Shown: in pieces, positions 44,877 to 61,822 of the stretch
How the letters are laid out: each line of letters begins with the position of its first letter
How positions within the stretch are numbered: the first letter of the stretch is position 1
Origin: a virus
Lineage: Duplodnaviria > Heunggongvirae > Uroviricota > Caudoviricetes
DNA: 64,000 bases
Direction: 5' to 3' (one strand)
IMG/VR virus record: IMGVR_UViG_3300042346_001601
Program-made: the position numbers and the translations under genes
Notes under the pieces: generated by a model
Databases searched by the model: none
What the model was told of the DNA's origin: nothing
The model's input: only the letters and a program-made list of their open reading frames with translations

Positions 44877-44877
44877 G

Positions 44878-45879
44878 TTATAAAGTGTTAAAATAATTAG
44901 ATTGCTGGAGATGTTTCAAATAATCTAAAATTTTCAGAAATTCTTCCGGTCTTTTCTCGCCGTGGAGAACCTTGATGTCCCTTTTAGAAGGAGGAATTCT
45001 ATAAAAATTAAGAGAATAGTCCTTATTTTCCTCCGACATCCAGGTGGAAAATCCTGGATGTCCCTCTTCATAAAAATGACAAACCGTGTTGATCCCATCT
45101 CTTAAATTTATATAGCATAGTGGAAATCCTTCGTTGGTTTTTTTCCACGATAAAACGTTGTAGATTGTCTCTTCGTGAAAAGCGGCAACCCTAGATAAAC
45201 TAATTTTCAATTTGGGAAGCAGAAAACAGAATTCCCTCCATGTTTTAACAAAATTCAAACAAGATGAATTACAGAGTATAACGTTGGTTGTTCTGTAGGT
45301 TCCCCTAGATTCCGCAGGCATTTCTAAAAATTGCATTAAAGGCCATTCTAGGGTTTTGGTTAAATCGGCCTTTGGCCAGCACCCTTCAAATGGATTTCCT
45401 CTTTCAAACCCATTTGGCTCGACTATGATCATATATTGATGAATGCCCTCCGTGCAAACTGGGTAGTCTTTTACGATGGGCATCCAATCGAACATTTCGT
45501 CGATTATAGGAGAAGCTATACAATCCGAATCTAAGTAGCAGAGCTCTTCGAAACCTTCTTCTAAAGCCAGCTGCATAGCCATAGTCTTAGCACATAAAAT
45601 TTTATAAATTTTTGGATTTTCTCTGGTAACGTAAAAATTACCATTAGCTTGATGAGTAAAATTATCTAGGTAGTCTTCATCCAGTTCTAGATCTAAATTT
45701 CTAAAGATAACTTTTTCCAGTCCTTTAAAGAAAAGGGACGCATCAGGAGAGCAATTTACACCGCAAACAATAATAGGAAATTTAGAGAAGAGTTCTATAC
45801 TTGTAGCTAAATTTTTGGCTATGTCTAGATAATTTTCAGTGGCATGTGTAATAAAAGCTCTTTTCATACAAATTCCCAT
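44878..45879 (-). CDS. possible GT-A fold glycosyltransferase
   Basis: N-terminal Rossmann-like FITHATENYLDIA... and DxD-like YLDSDCIA. Confidence 0.4.
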   Translation of the reverse strand: MGICMKRAFITHATENYLDIAKNLATSIELFSKFPIIVCGVNCSPDASLFFKGLEKVIFRNLDLELDEDYLDNFTHQANGNFYVTRENPKIYKILCAKTMAMQLALEEGFEELCYLDSDCIASPIIDEMFDWMPIVKDYPVCTEGIHQYMIIVEPNGFERGNPFEGCWPKADLTKTLEWPLMQFLEMPAESRGTYRTTNVILCNSSCLNFVKTWREFCFLLPKLKISLSRVAAFHEETIYNVLSWKKTNEGFPLCYINLRDGINTVCHFYEEGHPGFSTWMSEENKDYSLNFYRIPPSKRDIKVLHGEKRPEEFLKILDYLKHLQQSNYFNTL

Positions 45880-46790
45880 CCTCCTCCTGGAAACTTTTCG
45901 GCTTGATCCAAAACGTCAAAAATTTTACCATTTCTCCAAAACTCGAATTTTTGTAAACTAGGATCAATCTCAAATTGTTGGAACTCTGATATTGTCATCT
46001 TTTGGATATCGTTATCCTTTCTTATAAAGATTTCCAAGGGTTGTTTCACATCGTAAACCAAACAGTGTTGGGGATCTGCGGTGCCAACATTTTTGGAGAA
46101 ATAAATTTTGAATTCCTGCCAGGGAGAATAATTGTAAAAATCTTCGTGCCAATTACGAAAAGTGTAAATATGATCTTCGATAATAAAATCCCTGTTAATT
46201 GAAACATTAATTTTTTGGGCAAGATCTGCCCAAAAGTGTTCCGCACAATCAAACTCCAAACATCTTTCCCAAATAAATTCAGATTCTAGATTTTCTAATT
46301 TTGATTGTGAGACGGAAAAAAATTGGGAAGCACAATCATTAATTAATTTTTTTCCATTTTCGGTTGTTCTAAAAGCAAAAAAAGATTCTTGGTTTTTGTA
46401 TTTGATGAAATTTAAAATTTGATTATCGATGACCAAATCATATAGCATAAAATAATTCATGTCATAATTTAGAATCCTTGCAAGTTGAACTAATTTCAGA
46501 ACCTGAGAAAACCCAGCAAAACGGTTATTTCTCCAAAATCTGTAAAATTTAATTTTTTTCGCTCCAAAAAATTCTTCTTTCCAAAAAAGGTTAGAAGAAT
46601 CCTCTTTTAATGGGTTATTTGGGTTGAAAAAATAAAAATCAACTAAGTTTAGAATGTCTCTTTCCAGATGAATAGACGAATAAAGCAAAATAGATGTGTC
46701 TATTTGCCTTAAAAGTTCCAAATTAATTTTTAGAACTTTTCTTTTTTCTTCTGAATCACAATGAGAACTAATTAAAACTAATTTTTTCAT
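45864..46790 (-). CDS. uncharacterised family protein (paralog 1 of 3 in cluster)
   Basis: N-terminus KKLVLISSHCDSEEKRKVLKINLELL...SIHLERDILNLVDFYFFNPNN aligns with N-termini of 49799..50920 and 56003..56983. Confidence 0.45.
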   Translation of the reverse strand: MKKLVLISSHCDSEEKRKVLKINLELLRQIDTSILLYSSIHLERDILNLVDFYFFNPNNPLKEDSSNLFWKEEFFGAKKIKFYRFWRNNRFAGFSQVLKLVQLARILNYDMNYFMLYDLVIDNQILNFIKYKNQESFFAFRTTENGKKLINDCASQFFSVSQSKLENLESEFIWERCLEFDCAEHFWADLAQKINVSINRDFIIEDHIYTFRNWHEDFYNYSPWQEFKIYFSKNVGTADPQHCLVYDVKQPLEIFIRKDNDIQKMTISEFQQFEIDPSLQKFEFWRNGKIFDVLDQAEKFPGGGWEFV

Positions 46791-46797
46791 AATTCTT

Positions 46798-47439
46798 TTA
46801 AAAATTAATTTTTTTTAAATATCCATTTGGATTAAAAGTGACATTGTAACCATAAAAATCACACCATTTTCTATCTATTTCGAATTGTGGATTTTGTGGT
46901 AAAAATTCTTCTATCGCTCTAAGAGGACCTCCGTCATAGTTTTTTTCGATGCCCATCCAATTCACAGTTCCGTCTTCAACGATCATATAGGAATCTTCGC
47001 TGATTAAATCTTTGAATTTATTCATCACAGACAAAACATCGTTATAGTTGTGTGACCCATCTTCAATCAACATAATTTTTTTAAATGAGGATGCATAATC
47101 CAAGTTGTATTCTTGATAACCTCCCAAGAATCTCTGAATTCTTGGATGTCGATTAATCAAACCCCTCTTTTCTTCGGAATTTGATAAAAAAGTTTCATCC
47201 TGAATATCCACAGTATGAACCATACCTTTACCTATATTATTTAAAATATCACCCAAATACAGACACGATCCTCCATAATTAGTCCCTATTTCTATTATCA
47301 AATCGGGTCTTATTTCATTAATTATCATTTGATACATTACGTAATCAAATGGGGATTTTTCAGTTATAATTCCTCTATATAAAGTTTTTAGATGTCCATC
47401 CATGATACCATCTAAATTTAAGTTGTATGAATTGTTCAT
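46798..47439 (-). CDS. class I SAM-dependent methyltransferase, CmcI/rhamnosyl-O-methyltransferase-like
   Basis: DLIIEIGTNYGGSCLYL motif I; MVHTVDIQDE; family architecture of CmcI-type sugar O-MTases. Confidence 0.55.
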   Translation of the reverse strand: MNNSYNLNLDGIMDGHLKTLYRGIITEKSPFDYVMYQMIINEIRPDLIIEIGTNYGGSCLYLGDILNNIGKGMVHTVDIQDETFLSNSEEKRGLINRHPRIQRFLGGYQEYNLDYASSFKKIMLIEDGSHNYNDVLSVMNKFKDLISEDSYMIVEDGTVNWMGIEKNYDGGPLRAIEEFLPQNPQFEIDRKWCDFYGYNVTFNPNGYLKKINF

Positions 47440-47449
47440 TTTTTTTATT

Positions 47450-47854
47450 TTAAAGATCCACTCTCATAGTATTGCACTCCCTGAAAAATCCACATCTTTC
47501 ATAGAAATTAATTCTCTCATCGAAACAGGATAGAATAACCTTATAACATCCAAGATCCCTGGCTTTTTCCAAAGCTTTTTGAACCAATAAAAAACCAATT
47601 TTATTACCTCTAAATTTTTCTTTCACCGCCACATCTTCAATGAATCCTGCTAACCCGCCATTTCGGATTAATTTTCTTTGGAGATGGAGTGTAATTGTTC
47701 CTATGATTTCTTGTTCTTCAACCGCAACAAAATTGTAATTATTTGTCATCCATTCAGATAAAACGTTTTCTTGTATTTCTGTGATGTACCAGGTCTCCTT
47801 CAAGATTTCCAGTAATCCAGCTTCATCTCCCTTCTGAAATTCGCGAATGGTCAT
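47450..47854 (-). CDS. GNAT family N-acetyltransferase
   Basis: motif A VAVKEKFRGNKIGFLLVQKALEKA (Q/R-x-x-G-x-G/A). Confidence 0.8.
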   Translation of the reverse strand: MTIREFQKGDEAGLLEILKETWYITEIQENVLSEWMTNNYNFVAVEEQEIIGTITLHLQRKLIRNGGLAGFIEDVAVKEKFRGNKIGFLLVQKALEKARDLGCYKVILSCFDERINFYERCGFFRECNTMRVDL

Positions 47855-47859
47855 AAATG

Positions 47860-49020
47860 TTATTTTTGTGATTCGATAACGTTTTGAATCACAAATTCAA
47901 TATCATCATCGGTTAAAAATAAATGTAAAGGTAAACTAATAATTTTCTCGCTCAGGTTCAATGAATTCGGATTCAACCCAAATTGTGATTTGTACATATC
48001 ATAATGGGTATTATCACGATAATGAACTCCTGGATATATCCCACGAATATTTAAAAATTCCATAGTTTTGTTTCTTTCTTCCACAACAATTTGATACAAA
48101 TGCCTAGAAGAAAGTTCTGTGTACGGAGAAACTTTAACTGACTGGATGCCTGCAGATTGAAATGACTTTTCATACATTTGGCAGATTTCTCTTCTTCTGG
48201 TGTTATCCTCTTCAAGATATTTCAAACCAACTAAAGCCATCGAAGCCATCATAGAATTACCATGATATTTGAAACCAACATCAACGAGATCATATTCCCA
48301 TTTATAACTTCCTTTGTCGTGTGATCTTTGGTAAGTGTCTTTAGAAATTCCAAGCCAAGATAATTTTCTGGCTAATACGTCATAATCTTCATTCTTGAAA
48401 CAGATCATTCCCGAATCTGCGGTCGGAAGATTTTTGACCGCCTGAAAACTAAAAATAGAAACATCAGCATCTAAACCAACATGATCTTTCGAGTAACCAA
48501 CACCAACCTCTGTTTTGTTTTTTATCCAGGTTCCAGCCATATGTGCGGCATCTAAAATAATTTTAAGGCCTTTGCGTTGGCAAAAATTTACTATTTCATC
48601 GAACCTCCCGGCATTACCCCCAATTCCCACAAATAAAACAGCTTTGGTTTTTTTGGTGATTTTTGATTCTACTGATTTTGGATCCAGACATAGAAATTCA
48701 TCTACGTCTGCAAAGATTGGTCTCAGTCTTTCGTACATTATTGCGTGATTTGAAGACACAAAAGTTAAGGGGGACGTGATAATCTCGTCTCCTTCTTTCC
48801 ATTTATTGGCGTCTTTTAAAATTTTTAAGGCAAGATGCAAACCAGAGGTGTTCGAATTTAGAAAATGCGCATGCTTAAATCCGGTGTATTTTTTCCATTC
48901 TTCTTCAATCTGCTGAGTTTTAAAACCTAAACCTGTCCATCCTATTTCCATACACTCTTGCATATGTTCCCAGATTTCTGATGTTCTGAACTTAGGTTTG
49001 AATAATTGAATATTTTTCAT
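47860..49020 (-). CDS. DegT/DnrJ/EryC1/StrS-family PLP-dependent sugar aminotransferase
   Basis: 386 aa; DAAHMAG...; PLP-lysine context SIFSFQAVKNL; overall collinearity with ArnB/FdtB-type enzymes. Confidence 0.85.
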   Translation of the reverse strand: MKNIQLFKPKFRTSEIWEHMQECMEIGWTGLGFKTQQIEEEWKKYTGFKHAHFLNSNTSGLHLALKILKDANKWKEGDEIITSPLTFVSSNHAIMYERLRPIFADVDEFLCLDPKSVESKITKKTKAVLFVGIGGNAGRFDEIVNFCQRKGLKIILDAAHMAGTWIKNKTEVGVGYSKDHVGLDADVSIFSFQAVKNLPTADSGMICFKNEDYDVLARKLSWLGISKDTYQRSHDKGSYKWEYDLVDVGFKYHGNSMMASMALVGLKYLEEDNTRRREICQMYEKSFQSAGIQSVKVSPYTELSSRHLYQIVVEERNKTMEFLNIRGIYPGVHYRDNTHYDMYKSQFGLNPNSLNLSEKIISLPLHLFLTDDDIEFVIQNVIESQK

Positions 49021-49031
49021 TCTTAAAAAAT

Positions 49032-49802
49032 TTAAAAATTATGAAATTTTTGATTGAAAATCGATTTAATTTCATCTAAATCTTTTTCTGTTATTTCAGT
49101 TTGAGCTTTAGATGACATTGAATCTTCTTTTTTTTCATAAACAAATGATGGATAATCAAGATATCCTATTCTACCGCGAAGAGATAATTCAAAATTGGTA
49201 GCCCAATCTATGAAATGCTTATTTTTAACATAACTTAAATCAATGTCAGTGAAATTTCTAAAAAATCTTGATGATGAGTAGCACAAGTTACTATGATGTA
49301 AAAGTTTTTTGTCAATTTCTCCGTCACTAATTGGATGTAAAACGGAGTTATACTCTGTCATAGCAGCAATCCAAAAGCTCCCATCCGCCGAGGGAACCAA
49401 TTTTCTTCCTTCACTAATCAAATATCCAGTGCTAACGAGAGAAAAATCAGGATTATTTTCTAAAAAATCAAATTGTTTTTTTAGTTTATATGGATCTATC
49501 CAATAATCATCTGGGTCTATATAAGCAACATAAGAAGTTGAACAATTTTTGAGAAGAAAAATAACGGTTTCTATAAATCCTTTGTTTTCTTTATTGGAAA
49601 ATATCGAAATTTTAAAATTTTCGTTTTCAAAATTTTTTAATCTGTGTAAAATAGCCAGACTTTGATCTGTAGAACAGTCATCGCAGGCTATAAAATGAAT
49701 ATTGCAGTCGATTTTTTGCACGTAAACGGAAAAAAAAGCACGATCTAAAAAATAAGCATAATTGTAGACCGGCATTATAACACTTATTTCTTTTCTTTTC
49801 AT
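49032..49802 (-). CDS. glycosyltransferase family 2
   Basis: ISVIMPVYNYAYFLDRAFFSV...IACDDCSTDQS...YIDPDDYW (DxD). Confidence 0.8.
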   Translation of the reverse strand: MKRKEISVIMPVYNYAYFLDRAFFSVYVQKIDCNIHFIACDDCSTDQSLAILHRLKNFENENFKISIFSNKENKGFIETVIFLLKNCSTSYVAYIDPDDYWIDPYKLKKQFDFLENNPDFSLVSTGYLISEGRKLVPSADGSFWIAAMTEYNSVLHPISDGEIDKKLLHHSNLCYSSSRFFRNFTDIDLSYVKNKHFIDWATNFELSLRGRIGYLDYPSFVYEKKEDSMSSKAQTEITEKDLDEIKSIFNQKFHNF

Positions 49803-50920
49803 TCGATTTTATAGTAATTTTTTACCAAAGCATATTTAGACAAGTTTTCTCTTTTAATTTTTATAGAATCTGTGAATTGACATGTTTCATCTTCTATATT
49901 ATGTAATTTTTTTGTGAAAACTACAGAGTCCCCATCTACAAACAAATCATTCAATTTTTCTTTGTACCACCCTCCCTTTCCTAGAATTATTTCGCGATGG
50001 AAAATTTCTTCTGAATTTTCAGTAATAATCTTAATGGAGAAGCTGACTTCATTACAAGGGCAACCTGGTTCAACATTTAAAAGTAAATAACAATCCGATA
50101 GATCTTCCTTCCAGAATAGTGAAGAAGTTGTGGTGAAATGTAAAGCGCTTGGCCCAGGTTTTATGATCGAACTTACTGTATTCCAATTTCCGAATCCGAA
50201 AAATTTATCCATCTCGGAATGTTCATCAACTAGATTATTATCCCCGCCAAAAAGTTTTAGCATCACATCTTCAAGACCACAATTGGGAAAAATCTTTTGA
50301 AAATTGGAATTATCCGAAAAATCGAGATTTGGAATTTTTTGAATCAAACTTTCGTCCAAAGTAAACCCAAAAAGGTGTGGGCAATACCAGCTACTAAAAT
50401 TTGGATTATTTTTTATAAAGTAATTTTTGTGCTCCCCTAAATTCGAAAAAATTTCAGAGAATTTTTGTTGAATATTATCCGGACATTTGAAATCTCCAAC
50501 AAAATAAAAGGCAAATTCATATCCCTTTGACCACAAAAATTTAATCGAATTAACAAATTGGGAGACAATGGAAACCGACCAACCGGTAACAACCAAATGG
50601 TCTCTAAACATTTCATTTCCTATTTGAATGTATTTCAGGTAAACTGGATTTTGTATTCCCTCTAGATTGTAATTTAGAATGTCTGAATCAAGGAAATGAT
50701 AATTGTTTTTCCTTTCAAAAATAAAATAAGTAGTGTTTTCAATAATCTCGGGAGTACATGGATGGTGGCTAGTTAAAAGAACGTCTATCTCATTTTGTTG
50801 AAAAATTTTTAGATTGGCCAGAAGAATTTCTTGTTCCTCCGTGGTTTGGGGATATGCATCTATGATGACACAGAACTTTTTATCTGATATTTTTTCTCCT
50901 ATTAAATTATCAGAATTCAT
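49799..50920 (-). CDS. uncharacterised family protein (paralog 2 of 3)
   Basis: N-terminus KKFCVIIDAYPQTTEEQEILLANLKIF...TSHHPCTPEIIENTTYFIFERKNN. Confidence 0.45.
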   Translation of the reverse strand: MNSDNLIGEKISDKKFCVIIDAYPQTTEEQEILLANLKIFQQNEIDVLLTSHHPCTPEIIENTTYFIFERKNNYHFLDSDILNYNLEGIQNPVYLKYIQIGNEMFRDHLVVTGWSVSIVSQFVNSIKFLWSKGYEFAFYFVGDFKCPDNIQQKFSEIFSNLGEHKNYFIKNNPNFSSWYCPHLFGFTLDESLIQKIPNLDFSDNSNFQKIFPNCGLEDVMLKLFGGDNNLVDEHSEMDKFFGFGNWNTVSSIIKPGPSALHFTTTSSLFWKEDLSDCYLLLNVEPGCPCNEVSFSIKIITENSEEIFHREIILGKGGWYKEKLNDLFVDGDSVVFTKKLHNIEDETCQFTDSIKIKRENLSKYALVKNYYKIE

Positions 50921-50921
50921 G

Positions 50922-51851
50922 CTAAGACAAGATCTTTTTATTCTGCCAAGCCCAGATCATATTTCCAGTGTGGTGTGTTTGAAATCCATTTTCTGAAAAG
51001 ATAAGCAATAATTGATCCGGAGGATGAATATGATATTCCAAAACTATCTTTGGTATAGACTTTAAAAATTCAGAGCTCATGTTTGGAAAAATTTCCCATT
51101 CACCTCCCTCGCAGTCTATTTTTAAAAAATCTATTTTTACCTCATTTTCTTTTGCCCATTCTTCCAGGACAACTCCTTGACAAAAAACACTTTCATCGGT
51201 GTGATCGAACGAAACAGAAACTGAATTCAAAACACTTGACTCATGAATATTTAGTTTCAAATCCTTTTTTTCCGACCACACAGCTAAATTGTGGACATGA
51301 ATTGGCAAATCACCGAAGTTTGTTTGAATAAAACTTGATAGCTTGGGGTCTGGTTCAAACGAGTGAACTTGTGCAGCTCCTTTTGTAATCGAAAAAAAGG
51401 AAAAGAAACCGATGTTTGCCCCAATATCAACAACAACATCTCCAGGTTCCACTTTACAATGTTCGTGGTTGTATTCCCCACTTAAAAAAATCTCCCAAAG
51501 TACAAGCCCTGTTACTAAGTCTTTTTTTGAAAGATTACTTCCTATATTTTTCAACCTGTTCTTTGGGTCCAAATTTCTTATATCATGCCTAAAAGTATCT
51601 GAGTAATCACAAACTTCGAGTAGGATTTCTCCAGTTTGCAAATCCTCTACTACAAAAGTGATAAATTTTGTGATTCTACCGCTATATGCTACCCAGTATG
51701 AACATTTGGGAAAAACATTAATTATGTCACCCCAATAACACAATCTTGTGTGAGAATCTATAAACTTAATTACAATTTCCCTTTCCTCGTCAAAATGACT
51801 GGTAAAGTCTATCCCGTTTCTATCCGGTAAAATGTGATTTAGAGAGATCAT
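50922..51851 (-). CDS. FkbM-family methyltransferase
   Basis: VVDIGANIGFFSFFSITKGAAQVHSFEPDPK matches FkbM (Methyltransf_21) signature. Confidence 0.7.
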   Translation of the reverse strand: MISLNHILPDRNGIDFTSHFDEEREIVIKFIDSHTRLCYWGDIINVFPKCSYWVAYSGRITKFITFVVEDLQTGEILLEVCDYSDTFRHDIRNLDPKNRLKNIGSNLSKKDLVTGLVLWEIFLSGEYNHEHCKVEPGDVVVDIGANIGFFSFFSITKGAAQVHSFEPDPKLSSFIQTNFGDLPIHVHNLAVWSEKKDLKLNIHESSVLNSVSVSFDHTDESVFCQGVVLEEWAKENEVKIDFLKIDCEGGEWEIFPNMSSEFLKSIPKIVLEYHIHPPDQLLLIFSENGFQTHHTGNMIWAWQNKKILS

Positions 51852-51858
51852 AATTTTT

Positions 51859-52635
51859 TTATTTATTATTTTGTCTTAGAACTTCTTTCTCCTTATTGAA
51901 ACAATGCAAAGAAGTGATGTGCATGGTAAAAAATCCAGGTTTAACCTCGCCCCAGGATTCGGGATTTCTTTCCCTCAATTTTTCTAGAACCCAAAAAACT
52001 TTCCGACAAGCCATATAGATATCGTCTCTAAAGTGGCGGAGATAGTCACAGGACCTGATGTAATACACGATGTGTAGATAATCCGCTCTTCTCATAAAAT
52101 GATAGCCGATTGTACAAGGAACTCGTTCCCCGTGGACAGATCCAGTGTCTTCCGGGAACCACAGGGGCAGAAAAGCCTGTCTAGTGAAAGGTTCTCTTGC
52201 CAACAAATCAATCACATCACCAAAGTCACCGTAGTTGTACCTAATGCCAAACATGGTCGAATTGGGTTCTTCTGATGCAAATTTAGGCCAGAGTCTTTCT
52301 GGATAAGTGTGAGAAAATTTCTCCTCTGTTTTGAATTGGGAATTCTTCTTTTGGTTGAAAGGCCACCATTCGTTAGAAGGAGGTGGATTCAGCGGCTGGC
52401 CCCCGATTCTTTCTTCAAAATGATCGTCCGCCCAGGGAAGATTAGGTCTGACCTCATCACGTAGTTCTTCGAGTGTGTGGGGGACAAACATAGAGAAAGA
52501 AGTATTTAAGGTTTCCCACATGTCGTCAGGGGAAGGTATACCCTGCCATCTCTCGGTCTGTACGACATATCCGTGATCGATCAATTTTTCCTTAGCCCAC
52601 TTGATGGCTTGTGAGGGCTTTTGAAATGTTTTCAA
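51859..52635 (-). CDS. thymidylate synthase-fold paralog: putative pyrimidine (dCMP-type) 5-hydroxymethylase/methylase
   Basis: C-terminal 120 aa collinear with ThyA: REPFTRQAFLPLWF~NDPDSRRIIVSAWN; ERVPCTIGYHFM~MALAPCHAFFQFY (catalytic Cys kept); YYIRSCDYLRHFRDDIYMA~LYQRSCDVFLGLPFNIASY with Asp replacing the ThyA Asn177 (the dCMP-hydroxymethylase-type switch); GFFTMHITSLHCF~GDFVWTGGDTHLY. Long divergent N-terminus. Confidence 0.7.
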   Translation of the reverse strand: MKTFQKPSQAIKWAKEKLIDHGYVVQTERWQGIPSPDDMWETLNTSFSMFVPHTLEELRDEVRPNLPWADDHFEERIGGQPLNPPPSNEWWPFNQKKNSQFKTEEKFSHTYPERLWPKFASEEPNSTMFGIRYNYGDFGDVIDLLAREPFTRQAFLPLWFPEDTGSVHGERVPCTIGYHFMRRADYLHIVYYIRSCDYLRHFRDDIYMACRKVFWVLEKLRERNPESWGEVKPGFFTMHITSLHCFNKEKEVLRQNNK

Positions 52636-52695
52636 TGGGATGAATTTTCAAATTATACGGCCTAATCTGAATTAGTTTTCGATGGATTTTAAGTT

Positions 52696-53328
52696 TCAAT
52701 CTAAAATCCAGGAAGATATTTTTTCAGGGGAAATTAAATTCAAATCTCTGGTTCTATTTTGCTGGAAAATTTTATACTCAAAATATGGGTTATCGAAAGG
52801 AACGAGCTCTTGGCTTTCCCTTTTGATCAGTCCAACACCTTCGTCGGTATTAACAGTACAAATATTCAGATCTGGCCTGGTTGCCTTTAACTTATAGATA
52901 GTTTTCCAAACTGTTCCATTCCATGCTACTCCAAGATAATCTTCGATGACCCGAATGTAATTTACTTCATACATAAAAGGATCACAATCATGAAGAACTA
53001 TAACTCCCTCTTCTGTCAAGTGATTCAAAGAATTTAAGATGTCTTTTTCTACCTGGTAAGAAAGGTGTAATCCGTCGATAAAAATAAGATCCCACTCATA
53101 ATCAGGAGGTAAATCCAACAGATTATTTTCTAGCCTGGAAAAAAATTCATCAGAGGTAAACGGATACTTGACCGGATTTTCAGGATTTTCTAGACCTGGA
53201 TCGACCCCAGATTTCTCTTCGCATTGAATTAAATCGTAACAATCCTCAGGCCATCTTACTCCTATCTCCAAGTAGGTGCTAAATTTTTTGGTACTGATAA
53301 TCTGATTGATCACTTCTGATCTATGCAT
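52696..53328 (-). CDS. class I SAM-dependent methyltransferase (Methyltransf_24/CmcI-like)
   Basis: STYLEIGV motif I; DLIFIDGLH; VIVLHDCDP. Confidence 0.55.
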   Translation of the reverse strand: MHRSEVINQIISTKKFSTYLEIGVRWPEDCYDLIQCEEKSGVDPGLENPENPVKYPFTSDEFFSRLENNLLDLPPDYEWDLIFIDGLHLSYQVEKDILNSLNHLTEEGVIVLHDCDPFMYEVNYIRVIEDYLGVAWNGTVWKTIYKLKATRPDLNICTVNTDEGVGLIKRESQELVPFDNPYFEYKIFQQNRTRDLNLISPEKISSWILD

Positions 53329-53353
53329 AAGTTCAAATTTGTAAATTAATCAC

Positions 53354-53379
53354 AAAAAACCCAGCCGAAGCTGGGTTGA
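53354..53379 (-). terminator. rho-independent terminator after small lipoprotein gene
   Basis: minus-strand AACCCAGC-UUCG-GCUGGGUU followed by UUUUUUG. Confidence 0.6.
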
Positions 53380-53392
53380 AGAGAAGAAATCT

Positions 53393-53553
53393 TATTGAGC
53401 TGAAACTGTATCAACAGGGGCGGTAGCTTCTGTTGTAGTGTCAACTGGAGTGGTTTCTTCAACTACTGCCGGTTCATCAGTTGTAGTTTCTACTACAGGA
53501 CCGCAGGAGCTTAGGATGGAAATGAGAGCGAGCGTAAGCAGGGATTTTGTCAT
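53393..53553 (-). CDS. small lipoprotein (53 aa, below ORF-track cutoff)
   Basis: MTKSLLTLALISILSSCGPVVETTTDEPAVVEETTPVDTTTEATAPVDTVSAQ: signal peptide + lipobox LSSC, Thr/Pro-rich; followed by terminator. Confidence 0.4.
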
Positions 53554-53618
53554 TGTTTTTTTTGTTTTTTGTTTTAACTTTCTTTATATATTGAATCACC
53601 AACAAGGTTTCAAATTTT

Positions 53619-54206
53619 TTAATTTGCTATTTGAAATTTTTTAGGATCTGTAAAGGCCGGCTTACGATTTGGAAAATAATAAGTTATTTTTTCTTTCTTG
53701 TCGATGGTTAGGATTTTCCAAAAACCAGTTGGAACTGTTGCTCCCGTACTTAATTTTTCAGGAGACCCTGAAAAATCTAGTTTAATGAGAACGTCGACCT
53801 GATGAAATTCTGCTACCAATTGTCTCTCTTTGGCCTCTAAAATTCTCCAAACCCCCCGATTTAAATCTTGGTGTTGGAGAGCACAGTTGAGGTAGGAGAA
53901 AGTTCTTACTAGTGACTCCTTAGAACAACTGAAAGTAGCCGCCGGGGCTAGGTGCCCTTTGTCCCAGATATTCTTTTCGTAATCCGCATGATCAGAGGTA
54001 ATGATGGAATCAACCCGGTAAAAATCCAATCCTTGTCTGCTCTCCTTTGCCGCAGTACATCTGACCGAGTATGATAATTCTAGAGGTTGCTGATATATTT
54101 CAGAGTAAACGAGAGAGTATTCCCCCGCATTAACCGCTACAGATGCTCTTTGTGAATATGTACAAAAAGGAAAAAAAAGGACAAAAAGTAAAATTCTTGA
54201 TAGCAT
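53619..54206 (-). CDS. secreted non-specific DNA/RNA endonuclease (Serratia NucA/EndoG family)
   Basis: N-terminal signal peptide MLSRILLFVLFFPFCTYSQ; active-site motif DKGHLAPAA (DRGH motif). Confidence 0.7.
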   Translation of the reverse strand: MLSRILLFVLFFPFCTYSQRASVAVNAGEYSLVYSEIYQQPLELSYSVRCTAAKESRQGLDFYRVDSIITSDHADYEKNIWDKGHLAPAATFSCSKESLVRTFSYLNCALQHQDLNRGVWRILEAKERQLVAEFHQVDVLIKLDFSGSPEKLSTGATVPTGFWKILTIDKKEKITYYFPNRKPAFTDPKKFQIAN

Positions 54207-54249
54207 TGGATATTTTTTCCTTTATATATCCAATCTGGGTGTCGTGAAC

Positions 54250-54498
54250 CTATCTAGAGGCTAAAGATTCGTACTCTTGCTCCAAGAAAGACATCTCAAT
54301 CTCGGCGGATCTCTGATCCAAGCCCATTTCAGCCATAATTAAATTTACCCCAAAATCAGTCCATTCTTTTTTAACCGAGCCTTTTAAGGGATGGTTCAGC
54401 ACCCAGAGGTGATCTTTCTTAATTTGCTCATCGTGTAATCCAGTGTAAAGCTGATGCCTTTTTTTGAGAGAATTAATAATGTGATTTTTCGTCTCCAT
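54250..54498 (-). CDS. hypothetical protein
   Basis: 82-aa ORF. Confidence 0.4.
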   Translation of the reverse strand: METKNHIINSLKKRHQLYTGLHDEQIKKDHLWVLNHPLKGSVKKEWTDFGVNLIMAEMGLDQRSAEIEMSFLEQEYESLASR

Positions 54499-54503
54499 TG
54501 ATT

Positions 54504-55289
54504 CTATTGTTTATTCTGATTTTTCTGAAATTCTTCTTTTCTCCTGGTAAAAATCAGGGACTTTTGATCAAGCCATTCTTTTTCACTTGTTTCATCCACT
54601 TTTTCTATTTCTTTAGGATGAGTTAAAGAATTCGAATGTTTCCTATAAATGTAGCTAGGGTAATGATCGTAGTTAATCTTACCCCTTAAGCTTAATTCAT
54701 AATTCATGGGCCAATCTGAATACGGAAATTCGAAAAAGTAAGGCTGAAAAAGATCCTCATAATTTCTAAAAAAACGGGAGGATGCATATACACAGTTCCT
54801 GCCGGTAGAAATAAATTCAGGGGAGGTGAAATTTTTATCCATAAATTCTTCGGGAACTCCAAAAAATAAATCTCCTTCTGGATGTGGACAAAATCCATAC
54901 TCTCCTTCTAAAGTTAAATAACCGGTAGAAGACGCGGAAAATTCTGGATTACTCTCAAGAAAATCAAATTGTTTCTGTAATTTATAAGGATCTATCCAAT
55001 AGTCATCACCATCAAGATAGGCTATATAATTTCCTTTAGCTTTAGAAAGTAATCTTTTAACTGTTTCTACTTCTCCCTTATTTTCTGTGTTGATAAAAAA
55101 GTCGAATTTGTCCTGCCCGTAAAATTTTTTGAACCGTGTTAAAATACCAGCGCTCTGATCTTGAGAAGAATCATCCCCCACTAATACTTGCACGTCGAAA
55201 TTGGTGATCTGCGAAAAAACGGAAAAAAGAGTCGTATCAAGAAATTCAGAGAAGTTGTAATTTGGAATTATGACGGTAACGGAGCTCAT
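54504..55289 (-). CDS. glycosyltransferase family 2 (paralog of 49032..49802)
   Basis: VTVIIPNYNFSEFLDTTLFSV...VGDDSSQDQS...YLDGDDYWIDPYKLQKQFDFLESNPEF (cf. YIDPDDYWIDPYKLKKQFDFLENNPDF). Confidence 0.8.
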   Translation of the reverse strand: MSSVTVIIPNYNFSEFLDTTLFSVFSQITNFDVQVLVGDDSSQDQSAGILTRFKKFYGQDKFDFFINTENKGEVETVKRLLSKAKGNYIAYLDGDDYWIDPYKLQKQFDFLESNPEFSASSTGYLTLEGEYGFCPHPEGDLFFGVPEEFMDKNFTSPEFISTGRNCVYASSRFFRNYEDLFQPYFFEFPYSDWPMNYELSLRGKINYDHYPSYIYRKHSNSLTHPKEIEKVDETSEKEWLDQKSLIFTRRKEEFQKNQNKQ

Positions 55290-55306
55290 TTTTCTCTACT
55301 CAATTT

Positions 55307-55693
55307 CTATTTTTGTGAATCACCTTTCCAAACACGATAAGAATCCTCGTCAAAGTGTTGGGTGGAAACCTCGAAGATTATCCCATCCGTTATTGCTTCC
55401 AGTTGATGTGGTTGGCCGGGCATTTGTCTGACCGAATCACCTTCTATTAAATTTTTTTCAACCACTTCTGCGTTGCGGGTGTCTATATACCGATAAATAA
55501 AAGTGCCTTCCTTTACGTACCAAGTTTCATCTTTGATCAAATGATAGTGCATTGAAAATTTGGCTCCTCCCTTAAAACATAGAAGTTTTCCACAATACAG
55601 TTCGTTATTTTCGAAGACAACCTCATGACCCCATCCTTTAGGGATGTTGCACTCATCGCAGGAGGGTACATGATATATAATAGGTGGTTCCAA
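55307..55693 (-). CDS. cupin-fold sugar isomerase/epimerase-like protein (WxcM/FdtA-like)
   Basis: 128 aa; HYHLIKDETWYVKEGTF cupin motif; size and context (next to GT2, aminotransferase, acetyltransferase) as in Fdt-type pathways. Confidence 0.5.
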   Translation of the reverse strand: MEPPIIYHVPSCDECNIPKGWGHEVVFENNELYCGKLLCFKGGAKFSMHYHLIKDETWYVKEGTFIYRYIDTRNAEVVEKNLIEGDSVRQMPGQPHQLEAITDGIIFEVSTQHFDEDSYRVWKGDSQK

Positions 55694-55781
55694 GAGATTT
55701 GTCAGTCAAATTAAATATGGACCTTTTATGAAAAAGAAAGAAATGATTTCGAATTATTTCTTAAATTTGTAAAAAAAAACA

Positions 55782-57014: not shown

Positions 57015-57407
57015 TTATCCCTCTGTCTGGGAATTTTTTTTGTTTGAAATATCGTTGAACCTCATTTGGCTCAACTCGTAATTTGCATTCACCTGAGCCC
57101 AGAGCTTATCGCATCTGGAATCCAACTGCTTTTGTAGAGATTCAAATTGTTCTCTTCCCGATCTGATTCCGACTTCTTCTCGTTTATTGATTTCGTCGAG
57201 AACTTCATCGATCCGATTGTGGATGTAAGAATCATCGGAGTGTAAATTGTTCCTTGTAATTTCAATCTCTTTCATGACCGATTCGATGTGGTCGGAGATT
57301 TTGGTTCTGATTTTTCGGTCTAAATCCGAATTCATCTTAAACACACCCGCCACGGTGACCAAGACCACCACGGTAAGCGCACCTAAAAGAAAATAAAGTA
57401 TTGCCAT
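57015..57407 (-). CDS. hypothetical membrane-anchored coiled-coil protein
   Basis: N-terminal TM helix MAILYFLLGALTVVVLVTVAGV. Confidence 0.45.
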   Translation of the reverse strand: MAILYFLLGALTVVVLVTVAGVFKMNSDLDRKIRTKISDHIESVMKEIEITRNNLHSDDSYIHNRIDEVLDEINKREEVGIRSGREQFESLQKQLDSRCDKLWAQVNANYELSQMRFNDISNKKNSQTEG

Positions 57408-57471: not shown

Positions 57472-57504
57472 TTTCAAAAAAAAGTTTGTCTTACGACAAA
57501 CTTT
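57472..57504 (-). terminator. rho-independent terminator downstream of tmRNA
   Basis: perfect 10-bp hairpin AAAGUUUGUC-GUAA-GACAAACUUU followed on minus strand by UUUUUUUUG. Confidence 0.65.
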
Positions 57505-57944
57505 TGGTGGAGCTGGGCGGATTCGAACCGCCGTCCTGCTAGGTAATTCCATGAAACTCGTTCACAGGCTTAGTCCATTTTTCTAAACAGACAAATCTTT
57601 ACCTCCTAGTTTTTGACTGTGATAGGAGATAATCCACATCATCGATCCCTACAGCGATCTGAAGGGTATTGGACCGGAGCCCGCAGGGTTACTGAGGATC
57701 GACGGATTGTGTGGTACTGTTAACCCTTTTTCCCACCCTCGTGACTTTCTGTTCCTGGGTGTCACCCCCCGAGGTTTAGGCTGCCAAGGCAACTTCAACC
57801 GGCTCCGCTGAACCTAGTCCAGCCAAAGCAAAAAATGGATTTTCGCCATTTAAGAAGTACTTAGGATATTTAGGTGCTTCCAAAGCTAGCACCGCCTGCA
57901 TCATGTCAAAGAACTTATGCCTCCAGTCGATTCCTTTCAGCCCC
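57505..57944 (-). ncRNA. ssrA: tmRNA (ssrA), ~440 nt
   Basis: 5' end GGGGCUGAAAGGAAUCGACUGGAGG (cf. E. coli GGGGCUGAUUCUGGAUUCGACGGG), 3' tRNA-like end GGUUCGAAUCCGCCCAGCUCCACCA, internal tag reading frame ...GSAEPVEVALAA-UAA ending in the canonical ALAA degron. Confidence 0.85.
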
Positions 57945-58048
57945 ATTTTTTATATATTTCATCATTCTAAAAAACCCCGAATTTTTCTCTGAGATGGAAC
58001 GGAACCGTTTACGAGAATGAATATATAGTGCAAATGTAAAAAAAATTT

Positions 58049-60514
58049 ATGAAAAGAATATCCAAGAATTACAAAAAATTAAGATTATTCGAATCTGAGG
58101 AAGAACTAAAAGTCCCAGATGATGAAAAGCTTTGGCAAGCATACGGTGAGGATATGACCAAAGCAGCGAAGGAGGGAGAGATAAATGAAGTAATTGGAAG
58201 GGATAAGGAATTGGAACAGTTGCTTCGCATTCTGGCCAGGAAAACCAAGGATAATCCAGTTTTGGTTGGAGAGCCGGGCGTTGGAAAAACCGCTATTGTG
58301 GATAAGCTTGCTCTTTTAATGGCAAGCGATAAATGTCCCGGTTTTTTAAAGGGGAAAAAGTTAATAGATTTGACCTGGGCATTTAAAAAAATAGTTAATG
58401 GAGGTTATTTACCCCTTTTGGCCCGTGAAATTGAGGAAGATAACTTGATTATTTTTGTGGACGAACTCCATTCTCTACCTAAAGCAAGTTACGATGAACT
58501 CAAACCCTTTTTGGCTAAAGCCAAACTTCATATGATCGGTGGTTCCACTTATAGTGAATATGGTCAAACTATTGAGAAAGACGGAGCCATGGAAAGAAGA
58601 TTTCAACCGATCAAAGTTGAAGAGCCTACCTACGAGGAATGCATGGAAATACTTAGAGAAATCCAAGAAAAATATGGGGATTGGCATCATGTTAATTATT
58701 CACCAGAAGCCTTAGAATCCTTTTATAAACTATCTAAGCAGTATATTAAAGACCGATTTTTGCCAGATAAAGCTATCGACTTGATGGACGAATCCGGTGC
58801 ACGAATTCGCATTAAAAATGCCCCGGATGCGGAGGTTGCGAATCTAGAAAAGAAAAATTTAGAACTCCTAGACCGGATCAGGCAAAAGACGGCAGAAGGT
58901 GACTATGATGCTGCTGCAGATCTATCAGATGAAAAAGAAAAGATAGAGAGTCGGCTTGAAAAAATGGCTGCGAAAGGTCAAATGGGACCTAAAATTACCG
59001 TCACTAAAGAAATGGTGGAAAAACTAGTGGCAGATAAAACAGGGATTCCTGTTGAAACGATGAAAAAGGGCAGTAAGGCAATCCTAAAAGGAATGTCAAG
59101 CAGACTGAAATCAAAAGTTATCGGTCAAGACGAGGCGGTAGAGACCGTTGTTAGAACAATTAAAAGAAACAGGTCGGGTCTTAAAGACCCTAATAGACCT
59201 GAAGGGGTATTTTTATTCGTGGGCCCTACTGGGACAGGTAAAACCTATTTGGTGAAAAAATTGGCTGAGGAGCTTTTTGGATCTAGGGAATCTAAATTGA
59301 TTAGGATTGATATGAATGAATATTCGGAGGCTCATACAGGATCTAAATTGTTTGGATCACCTCCCGGTTATGTAGGTTATTCGGAAGGAGGCAAACTAAC
59401 AGAGCAAGTCAGAAGAAACCCTTATTCGGTAATTTTGCTAGATGAGATCGAAAAAGCAAACCCTCAAGTTATACAATCCCTGCTAGGGGTGCTAGAAGAT
59501 GGAAGGATGACGGACGGGCAAGGGAGAACGGTTGACTTTACAAACTGTGTTATTATCATGACTTCTAATGTGGGATCAAAAACAGGATCTAAAAAGGTTA
59601 AATCAAAGGAACCCAGAAAAGCGATTGGTTTTTTGGTTAAAGATGAACCAGAAGATGAAACAAAACAGACTGGAGCAGAATCACCTGAGGAAATCAAAGC
59701 AAGAGTCGATGCAGCGATCAAAAAAGAGTTTTCGCCCGAATTTATTAATAGAATAGATGATATTGTTATTTTTCAGTCAATAGACCAAGAATCAATAAAA
59801 AAGATTGCAGAAAAAGAGCTCGAGAAGGTGGCAGATAGGATTAAAAATACCCAAGACATTAATCTGACTTGGGGAACTTCGGTTTACAAGTTGTTACTTA
59901 AACACGGATTTGACCCTGAATATGGGGCTAGACCCCTTAGAAGAGCAGTGGAGAAATATATCAAGGACCCTCTAGCCAATTTTATAATCGAGGAAGAGAT
60001 TGAGGAAGGATCCAACCTCAAAATTGATTACGATTCCTTGGCAGATGAGTTAGTCATTAACGGAAAGAAAATTTCAGAGTTATCTGAATCTAGACTCAGA
60101 AAAATCCACAAAAGTTTTTCTTTGTTCGAATCTACAAGTCCTAGAAGAATCAATAGTTTTTCAGAATTTAGCGATAGATTAGACGAGGCGGAAACAGAAA
60201 GGGAGAAAGAAGAGGAAAAGGGAAAACCAGCTCCTTTGCCTAAACCACTGCCTAAACCACTGCCTAAACCTACGCCTAAACCACAGCCTAAGCCTACTCC
60301 TAAACCTACACCCAGTGAGGATGAAGATGAGGATGAGGATTTTGATCCAGATGCAGAACCGGTCCGAAGAATAACTCCTCATCCGTCAATTGCACCACGA
60401 ATTAAAGTTCCTTCTCATGCTCCTGGACCCCAAGCAATAAAGAAAAAAGCTTCAGAGATGGATGTGATCAAAAGGTACATATCAGAACTCAAAAAAAGAA
60501 AACCATTTTACTAA
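58049..60514 (+). CDS. ClpC/ClpB-family two-ring AAA+ unfoldase lacking the N-domain, with short middle coiled coil and proline-rich acidic C-terminal tail
   Basis: D1: IGRDKELEQLLRILARKTKDNPVLVGEPGVGKTAIVDKLA; D2: VIGQDEAVETVVRTIKRNRSGL...FLFVGPTGTGKTYL...ILLDEIEKANPQV; sensor-2 GARPLRRAV; C-terminal PKPLPKPLPKPTPKPQPKPTPKPTPSEDEDEDEDFD. Confidence 0.85.
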   Translation: MKRISKNYKKLRLFESEEELKVPDDEKLWQAYGEDMTKAAKEGEINEVIGRDKELEQLLRILARKTKDNPVLVGEPGVGKTAIVDKLALLMASDKCPGFLKGKKLIDLTWAFKKIVNGGYLPLLAREIEEDNLIIFVDELHSLPKASYDELKPFLAKAKLHMIGGSTYSEYGQTIEKDGAMERRFQPIKVEEPTYEECMEILREIQEKYGDWHHVNYSPEALESFYKLSKQYIKDRFLPDKAIDLMDESGARIRIKNAPDAEVANLEKKNLELLDRIRQKTAEGDYDAAADLSDEKEKIESRLEKMAAKGQMGPKITVTKEMVEKLVADKTGIPVETMKKGSKAILKGMSSRLKSKVIGQDEAVETVVRTIKRNRSGLKDPNRPEGVFLFVGPTGTGKTYLVKKLAEELFGSRESKLIRIDMNEYSEAHTGSKLFGSPPGYVGYSEGGKLTEQVRRNPYSVILLDEIEKANPQVIQSLLGVLEDGRMTDGQGRTVDFTNCVIIMTSNVGSKTGSKKVKSKEPRKAIGFLVKDEPEDETKQTGAESPEEIKARVDAAIKKEFSPEFINRIDDIVIFQSIDQESIKKIAEKELEKVADRIKNTQDINLTWGTSVYKLLLKHGFDPEYGARPLRRAVEKYIKDPLANFIIEEEIEEGSNLKIDYDSLADELVINGKKISELSESRLRKIHKSFSLFESTSPRRINSFSEFSDRLDEAETEREKEEEKGKPAPLPKPLPKPLPKPTPKPQPKPTPKPTPSEDEDEDEDFDPDAEPVRRITPHPSIAPRIKVPSHAPGPQAIKKKASEMDVIKRYISELKKRKPFY
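60235..60312 (+). repeat. tandem ~12-nt repeats (cctaaaccactg-like) encoding (PKPx)n
   Basis: cctaaaccactgcctaaaccactgcctaaacctacgcctaaaccacagcctaagcctactcctaaacctacaccc. Confidence 0.7.
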
Positions 60515-60518
60515 GAAT

Positions 60519-61535
60519 ATGTCACTAAAAGCCAATTTCACAAAGAATTTTGCATCCTTTAATGAGGCTATTAGGGTTAAAGACATGGTGAGTATTCCCC
60601 CCGACTACCTAGAGGATGTCACGAGAAGAGCTAAAGAAAAACTCGGCATCGGGAAAACTCCCGAGGGATCCCCGCAAGGAATCAGCCAAGCCGTTAGCCA
60701 GTTGATGGGAAATTTTTCGAGATCCCAGCAACTTTCTAGAGGGTATGAAAAGGAGCTAGAAGATCTAGCAAGAGAAATAATTACAGATCTATACAAGCCC
60801 CTCATTGATTACTACGACATAAAGCTTGAAATTAAACTAGTACAGGGACCAGAAATAAGGAGGATGTTGGATGACAGCTTTAGAAAAACAAGACAAAAAA
60901 ACAGACCTCGACCGGATTCTAAACCAGTAATTAAAGCTTTAGGAGCGGATTTCAGCATGCTGATTCATGAGGCAGTCAAAGGAATTTGGAGGGTTATGTC
61001 AATGTCTGCAGTACCAGATGACCCTGAACTAGCCAAGGCTATTGAAGATCAATTCGGATTGATAGACGAACCGGACGAATGGAGATATGGTCCTCAAATG
61101 GCCGAAGATCTAAGAAAATTTATCTTTGAGAATCCCAAGGTCATCAAATATTCTAATTTGAGAGAGGAACTTTGGAAATATATGGTGGATCCAGAGAATT
61201 TACCCACGGCTGAATTTTTACCTCTGATGACAGGAATTTTTAGAAAAACTCCAGAAGCCAGAAAAAAAATCGATGAATTGATTGATGTAGTCATTGAGAG
61301 GGTGGAAGCCAGAGATGCCTGGCTGGAGCAGGATAGAGCCGATAAGGCTGAGTATGAAAGGAAATTAGCAGCATGGAAAGCCAGACAAGCTGCCAAATCC
61401 CCAAGTGGTTCAGAATCACAGATCACCAAAGATTACGCTAGTATGTCCCAAGAAGAACTAAAAAGGGAATACAGAAAGGCCGACGAGGAGGGAGATTTTG
61501 ATAAAATGATGGAAATCTCTGATTACATAAAATAA
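60519..61535 (+). CDS. hypothetical protein co-transcribed with ClpC-like gene
   Basis: 338 aa, starts 4 nt after clpC-like stop. Confidence 0.5.
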   Translation: MSLKANFTKNFASFNEAIRVKDMVSIPPDYLEDVTRRAKEKLGIGKTPEGSPQGISQAVSQLMGNFSRSQQLSRGYEKELEDLAREIITDLYKPLIDYYDIKLEIKLVQGPEIRRMLDDSFRKTRQKNRPRPDSKPVIKALGADFSMLIHEAVKGIWRVMSMSAVPDDPELAKAIEDQFGLIDEPDEWRYGPQMAEDLRKFIFENPKVIKYSNLREELWKYMVDPENLPTAEFLPLMTGIFRKTPEARKKIDELIDVVIERVEARDAWLEQDRADKAEYERKLAAWKARQAAKSPSGSESQITKDYASMSQEELKREYRKADEEGDFDKMMEISDYIK

Positions 61536-61543
61536 ATTTTACT

Positions 61544-61822
61544 ATGGATAAATTCATGTCAGAAACAGAGAAAAGGAAGATGCTGAATTTGATTGGCCAG
61601 GGAGAAGCAAAGAACACCAAAAAAATCTTGCAGTTACCCGAGATAAAAAACAAATTGAAAAAAATTATGGGGGATGAAAAAGGTCAGGAATTAGCTAATT
61701 GTCTATTGGAACTTGCCAATTCAGCAGATAGACTAGATTGGTTGGATTGGACAGAAAACAGAGGCAGACAGATGGAACACGGAACATCATTTGGCGGGGG
61801 TTATTATGTTGAATGGGAATGA
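61544..61822 (+). CDS. hypothetical protein
   Basis: 92-aa ORF. Confidence 0.4.
   Translation: MDKFMSETEKRKMLNLIGQGEAKNTKKILQLPEIKNKLKKIMGDEKGQELANCLLELANSADRLDWLDWTENRGRQMEHGTSFGGGYYVEWE

Follow-up and report, generated by a model that had tools for sequence, protein, structure and literature searches.

A one-piece tmRNA with a conserved 23-residue tag beside Clp genes in a large T4-like phage

The tmRNA and its anatomy

The DNA considered here is a 64,000-nucleotide stretch of the viral record IMGVR_UViG_3300042346_001601 (Caudoviricetes), hereafter called the window. On its minus strand, positions 57505-57944 hold a 440-nucleotide gene for a one-piece transfer-messenger RNA (tmRNA; ssrA), which the Rfam covariance model RF00023 aligns end to end (model positions 1-374) with a score of 72.1 bits (E = 4.3e-26; the gathering score is 47). 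A preliminary description of the window had placed a tmRNA at these coordinates and had named a covariance-model fold as the test of that call. The coordinates prove exact, and Rfam, the hand-checked anatomy, and covariation among relatives agree; the model fits over its full length and the call stands, with the strand now added.

All core tmRNA elements can be recognized by direct reading of the window sequence, with position p of the tmRNA corresponding to window coordinate 57945 - p. On the reverse complement, the 5' end reads GGGGCUGAAAGGAAUCGAC and the 3' end GGACGGCGGUUCGAAUCCGCCCAGCUCCACCA (terminal stretches 5' GGGGCUGA... and ...GGUUCGAAUCCGCCCAGCUCCACCA 3'), which bears out, on the minus strand, the canonical termini that had been described. 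The elements of the RNA and of the DNA that flanks it are as follows.

57945-58048 (unstranded): divergent intergenic region of 104 nucleotides between the tmRNA 5' end and the start of the Clp ATPase gene, with presumed promoters
57938-57944 (minus): acceptor stem 5' strand, GGGGCUG, tmRNA 1-7, pairing with CAGCUCC at 430-436
57894-57926 (minus): helix 2 5' strand, tmRNA 19-51, from duplex prediction with 376-409
57860-57893 (minus): PK1, an H-type pseudoknot with stems 52-57/67-72 and 60-66/79-85, from covariation
57776-57847 (minus): tag reading frame, with resume codon GGC at 57845-57847, 23 codons, and stop codon UAA at 57776-57778; peptide GENPFFALAGLGSAEPVEVALAA
57773-57800 (minus): helix 5, tmRNA 145-172, which spans the final tag codons and the stop; pairs 146-148/169-171 and 152-156/161-165
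57577-57772 (minus): predicted 3' pseudoknot-rich domain of ~200 nucleotides, tmRNA 173-368, with two covariation-supported hairpins
57536-57569 (minus): helix 2 3' strand, tmRNA 376-409, containing GACUAAGCCUGUG, from Rfam, duplex prediction, and covariation
57516-57532 (minus): T arm, GGCGG-UUCGAAU-CCGCC, tmRNA 413-429 (stem 413-417/425-429)
57505-57515 (minus): acceptor stem 3' strand CAGCUCC, discriminator A, and encoded CCA, tmRNA 430-440, by direct reading
57476-57504 (minus): intrinsic-terminator-like hairpin AAAGUUUGUC-GUAA-GACAAACUUU and U-run, directly after the CCA

This arrangement has the common architecture of bacterial one-piece tmRNAs (RF00023), with a tRNA-like domain carrying a G3·U pair, helix 2, and PK1, and likewise a GGC resume codon near 96-98, a stop codon in helix 5, and a predicted 3' pseudoknot domain. 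The loop of the T arm is of the GUUCGAAUC type. The resume codon, G98-G99-C100, is preceded by UUAAAU, placing U at -5 and A at -4, as at U85 and A86 of the Escherichia coli RNA. Positioning of the resume codon depends on its -6 to +1 context (PMC3985003). The internal frame had been described as ending in VALAA-UAA and does so, as GUU GCC UUG GCA GCC UAA, the stop lying at tmRNA 167-169 inside the 3' strand of helix 5. The tag had also been called unusually long if translation resumes near GGC GAA AAU; with that resume codon it has 23 codons, compared with 9 in the GENNYALAA and GETNYALAA tags, whose tmRNAs are ~398 nucleotides long as opposed to 440. With these short tags it shares the first two or three and the last four residues. 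The hairpin and U-run that had been seen to follow the gene are present as well: 11 pairs are predicted, the outermost of which involves the last A of the CCA (57505), with a folding energy of -12.3 kcal/mol and z = -2.9. An automated terminator scan did not list this hairpin (57476-57504), and a sigma-70 promoter scan upstream of the tmRNA (57945-58048) found none.

The preliminary description had proposed ARAGORN alongside Rfam as a check, and on this point the outcome is divided: Rfam recognizes the tmRNA with the score given above, whereas ARAGORN at default settings calls no tmRNA in the whole window and needs a threshold reduced to 80-85% before it reports one, with GENPFFALAGLGSAEPVEVALAA as the tag. 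Run with defaults on six members of the family described below, it found three and missed three, giving the correct tag in only two (L035 and L056) and a wrong tag for one more. Phage tmRNAs of this kind are probably undercounted, ARAGORN being the usual tmRNA caller in phage annotation.

Relatives, tag conservation, and covariation

Relatives of the tmRNA were collected by two routes: through homologs of the 130-amino-acid gene that neighbors it, and through an IMG/VR scan for the pattern GGCGAAAAY, 30-60 nucleotides, an ALAA-coding sequence, and a stop codon. The first route yielded one identical tmRNA (contig L040), three at 94.1% identity (L035, L036, and L037), and two partial ones at 90.6% (L038 and L039); the second yielded L044 at 91.8% and L045, L047, and L056 at 75-79%, on viral contigs of 91-219 kb. 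The diverged homologs (75-94% identity) score 67-88 bits with RF00023. In L029, a contig whose Clp ATPase is 92% identical to that of the window, the first 58 nucleotides of the tmRNA differ at one position, and the 104-nucleotide spacer beside it is much more diverged than this start of the tmRNA. Copies of the tmRNA that are 100% identical occur in contigs from several other samples; L006-L009, 100% identical to the window, carry no evolutionary information and were not counted. The terminator-like hairpin is kept in L035, L038, L040, and L044, with a differing loop.

The tmRNAs of L044, L045, L047, and L056 end in ACAA, not ACCA (CUCCACAA in place of CUCCACCA), so that CCA addition would be needed after transcription; because the CCA is not fully encoded, all four were missed by an exact scan with the 3' end. 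The exact 3' 32-mer of the tmRNA occurs in six other IMG/VR contigs, in four of which ARAGORN calls permuted two-piece tmRNAs and in two of which it calls none. The four permuted RNAs (L020-L023) have the tags ANDAVYELAA, ANDQVYALAA, and APPNLNGS and are otherwise unrelated; that they share the 32-nucleotide 3' end exactly indicates that the tRNA-like half can be identical across very different tmRNAs.

The predicted tags of the family are these.

Window: GENPFFALAGLGSAEPVEVALAA
L035, L044, and L039: GENPFFALAGLGSVESVEVALAA
L038: GENPYFALAGLGSVESVEVALAA
L045 and L047: GENPFFVLAGLGSVETAEVALAA
L056: GENPFYILAGLAPVEEAEVALAA

The 23-codon frame is present in all eight sequences that cover the tag, and the two remaining frames across this region hold stop codons in every member. 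At tag codons 8, 9, 15, 20, and 21 the variation is synonymous only, with Leu8, for example, encoded by UUG, CUU, or CUG, and the amino-acid replacements seen among members are conservative. The AAAU directly upstream of the resume codon is invariant in the family.

To score the secondary structure, the canonical fold was drawn by hand from the window sequence and applied to the eight-sequence family alignment, where 94.8% of cells are paired. Nineteen pairs show compensatory double changes, compared with 0-4 after the 3' partners are slid by 1-3 columns, a control biased toward the structure, which was drawn from the window sequence itself; the double changes in the 75%-identical relatives are unaffected by this bias. 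None of 500 shuffles matched the observed pairing or covariation. The covariation is located in H2a, both stems of PK1, helix 5, the 180-204 hairpin, the 313-346 hairpin, and the T arm. RNAalifold, applied to close variants, returned a non-canonical nested fold with no compensatory pairs, and the hand-drawn structure replaced it.

Within the tRNA-like domain, the third acceptor pair, G3·U434, is invariant in all seven sequences that cover the acceptor stem, and the T arm has two compensatory pairs, its stem reading GGCGG/CCGCC in the window and GUGGG/CCCAC in L045, L047, and L056. Helix 2 is long; its segments 19-25/402-409 and 45-51/376-382 (H2d) are 100% paired, its middle is irregular (only 81% paired at 30-35/395-400), and its one compensatory pair is 20/408 in H2a, which changes from U-A to A-U in three relatives. 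In PK1, stem 1 has three compensatory pairs and stem 2 has one, with 100% and 94% of cells paired, respectively, and in helix 5 the pair 147/170 changes from U-A to C-G in three relatives. The two supported hairpins of the 3' pseudoknot-rich domain are 180-184/200-204 (window 57741-57765), with compensatory changes at three pairs, and a 10-bp hairpin, 313-322/337-346 (window 57599-57632), which Rfam also aligns and which has seven. The pseudoknot partners 186-189/210-213 and 327-333/350-356 and the helix 242-250/296-304 have partial support only. Most substitutions among close relatives are concentrated in this domain, and the pseudoknot partners and middle part of its PK2-PK4 region vary in length among relatives.

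Genomic setting

The genes that bear on the setting of the tmRNA are listed below.

57015-57407 (minus): 130-amino-acid gene downstream of the tmRNA, a conserved neighbor (homologs P0121-P0142) that follows the tmRNA in L035-L040
58049-60514 (plus): ClpC-like double-ring AAA+ unfoldase of 821 amino acids (Pfam AAA_2, AAA_lid_9, and ClpB_D2-small)
60519-61822 (plus): two Clp-linked genes downstream of the unfoldase, of 338 amino acids (60519-61535) and 92 amino acids (61544-61822)
22265-23335 (minus): RNA ligase 2-like gene (Rnl2; PHROG 968, E 5e-92)
34080-35156 (minus): RNA ligase 1-like gene (Rnl1; PHROG 562, E 6e-63)

The tmRNA had been assigned to a phage-like gene block, and phage genes do flank it on both sides. 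The window consists mostly of small minus-strand genes, the minus-strand block starting just past the tmRNA 3' end, and PHROG and Pfam searches identify among its products a gp47-like repair exonuclease, a homing endonuclease, and an endolysin-like protein. On the other side, beyond the Clp genes, longer contigs with identical sequence carry a thioredoxin, an ATP-grasp enzyme, a DNA polymerase B, and a topoisomerase, the last two just past the right end of the window. The longest contig with the 130-amino-acid neighbor gene is 267 kb. The nearest proteins from cultivated phages are those of Tunturiibacter phage Tunturi_5 (308 kb) and of Flavobacterium and Cellulophaga phages; among 50,697 deposited phage records, megablast with 24 kb of the window and sensitive blastn with the tmRNA gave no match. 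Pfam and profile searches detected no integrase among the genes that flank the tmRNA, and the 25-nucleotide tmRNA 3' end occurs once in the 64-kb window at up to three mismatches, with no occurrence expected by chance. The tmRNA is thus embedded in a large T4-like phage and does not lie at a prophage junction. Its position differs among relatives. In the window, L029, and L040 it stands between the Clp ATPase gene and the 130-amino-acid gene; L035, L036, and L044 have it after ClpP and an AAA_33 kinase-like gene, and in L045, L047, and L056 it comes first in a tRNA array.

The 821-amino-acid unfoldase gene, which is divergent from the tmRNA, encodes a protein that aligns to residues 166-797 of Bacillus subtilis ClpC. 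Its two Walker A/B sets read GEPGVGKT/FVDELH and GPTGTGKT/LLDEIEKA, the second ring (D2) keeps a GYVG pore loop, and AIGF stands opposite the VGF of ClpC, so that an IGF-type ClpP-docking loop is kept. The protein has no match to Clp_N (PF02861), and the ClpC alignment starts at residue 166. Full-length phage homologs (P0001-P0016; 45-92% identity) group in a separate clade, and all are without Clp_N. The C-terminal ~110 residues (60179-60514, plus strand) form a low-complexity, Pro/Lys-rich stretch with an acidic tail, KPAPLPKPLPKPLPKPTPKPQPKPTPKPTP followed by SEDEDEDEDFDPD; peptide-pattern scans of IMG/VR and metagenomes with the Clp ATPase were swamped by the low-complexity EDEDEDED of this tail.

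A pair of genes of ~340 and ~91 codons lies downstream of the unfoldase in every relative examined (L010, L012, L014, L016, and L018). Alignment of these linked genes (A4) gives a mean column identity of 66%, and neither the 338- nor the 92-amino-acid protein matches a Pfam, PHROG, or PDB profile. An invariant MLIHE.VKG.W motif and a coiled-coil-like C terminus mark the larger protein, which could act with the unfoldase as its adaptor or partner.

ClpP (Pfam 189 bits; 70-75% identical among phages) is encoded directly upstream of the tmRNA in L035, L036, and L044, and 5.4 kb upstream of it in L056. More distant relatives have ClpP followed by SmpB on the same strand; the two genes abut in L014 (6806-7921) and overlap by 4 nucleotides in L089 (9312-10429), a contig of 328 kb on which a Gp23-type capsid protein gene is also present. 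The arrangement resembles translational coupling. In L010-L019 and L089, the ~20 kb surrounding the Clp or SmpB loci yielded no tmRNA. A homolog of an M28 peptidase is absent from the 64-kb window.

Discussion

Taken together, the sequence comparisons argue that the window carries a functional one-piece tmRNA of a large T4-like phage, inherited within the phage lineage, and we put the probability of this reading at roughly 0.8. Tag conservation and compensatory changes in the relatives are what point to a functional, long phage-resident tmRNA lineage with a selected 23-residue tag. Compared with L035, the tmRNA (94.1% identical) is more conserved than the 130-amino-acid gene (89.1%) and the spacer (84.5%).

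Several observations weigh on the other side. Compared with L038, the tmRNA (90.6%) is less conserved than the neighboring gene (94.7%), and it is therefore not clearly more conserved than its flanks; overall rate proves nothing, and the case for functional constraint rests for this reason on the pattern of change. Four syntenic relatives, L012 and L032-L034, have the same flanking genes 120 nucleotides apart and no tmRNA between them, and the tmRNA is dispensable or located elsewhere in these genomes. The pore-loop motif in the first ring (D1) of the unfoldase is degenerate. Within the 64 kb of the window and the 6.5 kb past its right end, neither SmpB nor ClpP was found (SmpB being sought by tblastn with the protein of a related phage; contigs with the 130-amino-acid neighbor gene reach 267 kb), and the phage may depend entirely on host factors for both. 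Because the phages share ancestry and synteny, the proximity of tmRNA and Clp genes counts as one evolutionary association and not several, and as a functional link it is suggestive only.

If the tmRNA functions as its anatomy predicts, it would be transcribed during infection, with transcription ending at the hairpin and U-run, and its 5' end would be matured by RNase P as in established tmRNA biology (PMC3985003, PMC3968760). The host alanyl-tRNA synthetase (AlaRS) would charge it with alanine by way of the G3·U pair, and, with SmpB supplied by the host or by the phage as in related phages, it would enter ribosomes stalled on broken or stop-less mRNAs. Translation would resume at GGC, adding alanine and the 23-residue tag ending in ALAA, which Clp-type proteases would then recognize. 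Phage nucleases and RNA-repair enzymes active during infection could generate many broken mRNAs, in which case extra tmRNA would keep ribosomes available, and the nearby phage Clp components could send truncated, tagged products to Clp proteolysis. The likely role of the RNA would therefore be to prevent ribosomes from being tied up as mRNAs are cleaved in infection, and to direct truncated products to Clp proteolysis. The preliminary description had held that a tmRNA in a phage implies manipulation of ribosome rescue during infection, which is a reasonable hypothesis.

A phage tmRNA is of a kind already known; what is new is a long-tag phage family with GEN...ALAA termini, its Clp setting, and its poor detection by ARAGORN. 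tmRNA and SmpB are known from huge phages (Al-Shayeb et al. 2020, PMC7162821), tmRNAs have been reported in several jumbo-phage genome papers, and in one survey 402 of 18,146 phage genomes, about 2%, had one (PMC9004378). As in huge phages, the tmRNA here is complete and belongs to a very large phage of lytic type with other translation genes; unlike the reported jumbo-phage tmRNAs, it has a conserved 23-residue tag and a Clp neighborhood, a combination of long phage tag and Clp genes for which our literature search found no precedent. The marine myophage Melnitz and the pelagimyophages likewise carry an ssrA in T4-like phages, proposed to serve the upkeep of hijacked translation machinery or the tagging of proteins for recycling (PMC9004378). 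Their tmRNAs, however, are permuted and two-piece, with short tags, and some are under a glutamine riboswitch, whereas that of the window is of the standard one-piece form.

The length of the tag invites comparison with degradation in E. coli, where a C-terminal ALAA is recognized by ClpX and ClpA and the adaptor SspB binds the ssrA tag and raises its affinity for ClpX (PMC3985003). By analogy, the extra upstream residues of the phage tag could in principle serve as a second, SspB-like binding site. The phage locus differs from ClpXP and ClpAP of E. coli in that the nearby unfoldase is ClpC-like and lacks an N domain and that no SspB-like adaptor has been identified. One might go further and suppose that this phage group runs its own rescue-and-disposal pathway with the 23-residue tag as a private, two-part degron, which we regard as unlikely on present evidence. 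In that scheme ALAA would feed the Clp pore and the conserved upstream part, PF[FY]xLAGL...E.EV, would be read by the ClpC-like unfoldase or its two linked proteins; the idea that the additional 14 tag residues are a binding site for a phage factor is equally unlikely. If the scheme were true, then with phage ClpP and SmpB the tagged products would pass to a phage-controlled protease, independent of host ClpX and adaptors.

An alternative to a rescue-and-proteolysis role is that the main job of the tmRNA is counter-defense, that is, the rescue of ribosomes stalled by abortive-infection RNases or anticodon nucleases, with proteolysis incidental. The window does encode both T4-type RNA ligases, and L035 has a polynucleotide-kinase-like AAA_33 gene between ClpP and the tmRNA. 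T4 RNA ligases 1 and 2 repair tRNAs cut by host nucleases. Possession of both ligases suggests that the phage repairs RNA or tRNA in infected cells, as would fit an investment in ribosome rescue. Against counter-defense as the main job, no defense system or target has been identified, and the conserved long tag and the Clp neighbors are left unexplained. We think it improbable, at rather longer odds than the degron, although it is compatible with a functional phage tmRNA and does not exclude it.

Less probable still is that only the tRNA-like domain works and that the tag is untranslated, the RNA being a decoy for SmpB, AlaRS, or RNase R, or else a captured host gene in decay. In favor of this, the tmRNA changes at much the same rate as its flanks, its ARAGORN score is below the default threshold, some relatives lack a tmRNA at this position, and phage factors that repurpose tmRNA or tRNA fragments exist (AcrIIIA1, PMC11662646). 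However, a decoy or decaying gene would not be expected to vary only synonymously at five tag codons, to keep tag length, resume context, and the ALAA end strictly in 75%-identical members, or to accumulate compensatory changes in PK1 and helix 5, which are relevant only to the mRNA function.

The last alternative equates the tmRNA with the chromosomal ssrA of the host, its 3' end being the insertion site of a prophage or island to which the phage-like genes belong. This view draws on ssrA being a classic integration site (in E. coli K-12, CP4-57 and its integrase begin at the ssrA 3' end) and on the long minus-strand gene block that starts just past the tmRNA 3' end, but it is largely refuted by the lack of an integrase in the flanks and of a repeated tmRNA 3' end in the window, by phage genes on the far side too (the Clp cassette, thioredoxin, ATP-grasp, DNA polymerase B, and topoisomerase), by a gene content that is T4-like and lytic in style, by related tmRNAs that head tRNA arrays in other phage contigs, and by the syntenic relative that has both flanking genes with only 120 nucleotides between them.

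The host of the phage is plausibly a member of the Bacteroidota, as several sequence hints suggest. The tag shares its first three codons, GGC GAA AAU, and its ALAA end with the GENNYALAA tag, which is typical of Bacteroidota and which we found in 31 tmRNAs recovered from IMG/VR. The native tag of Bacteroides is GETNYALAA (bioRxiv 10.1101/2025.03.18.644028). The SmpB of a related phage has its best named relative, at 50% identity, in Niabella (Chitinophagaceae), and protein matches lead to Flavobacterium and Cellulophaga phages. Ancestry could not be read from the RNA backbone: over the 5' part, median identity to the GENNYALAA set is 61-65%, barely above the 56-62% to E. coli ssrA, and an origin drawn from RNA similarity was rejected on that ground. 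An exact scan of IMG/VR with the 5' 19-mer gave no match, and the three metagenome-assembled genomes of GTDB that contain it (Syntrophaceae, Fimbriimonas, and Zixiibacteriota) are unrelated, share these 19 nucleotides only, and are uninformative on the host.

This long-tag family gives a handle on why some phages carry a tmRNA. In both length and sequence the phage tag departs from the short GEN...ALAA tags that the presumed host group carries, and phage-made and host-made tags would thus be distinguishable by mass spectrometry in infected cells. The ClpC-like unfoldase, ClpP, and the ClpP-SmpB pairs point to a testable link between rescue and proteolysis in infection.

Other features of the window

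Four further observations concern the phage and its relatives. The window has no standard tRNA gene; related phages have arrays of ~10-20 tRNA genes (L045, 280-6651; L047, 523-5412; L056, 10264-11999; L014, 15958-20620).

At 24099-24230 on the minus strand, the window holds a tRNA-like element of 132 nucleotides to which the Rfam tRNA model gives 31.5 bits (gathering score 29). Its acceptor stem and T arm are good, but ~57 extra nucleotides form a long central arm that replaces the anticodon and variable arms; its fold has a z of only -0.8, and ARAGORN, intron options included, does not call it. The element may be similar to the small, stable tRNA-like RNAs that T4 makes, or may represent a tRNA interrupted by an insertion.

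A gene at 41876-42928 (minus strand) encodes a protein of 350 amino acids with the Gln-synt_N and Gln-synt_C domains, shorter than a typical GlnA and unusual in a phage. A minus-strand cluster of sugar- and nucleotide-modification genes (44000-55700) encodes a DegT-type aminotransferase, two family-2 glycosyltransferases, a cupin, FkbM-type and other methyltransferases, and a thymidylate-synthase-like protein. The content of this cluster differs among L012, L038, and L040, and its products may modify DNA or a surface glycan.

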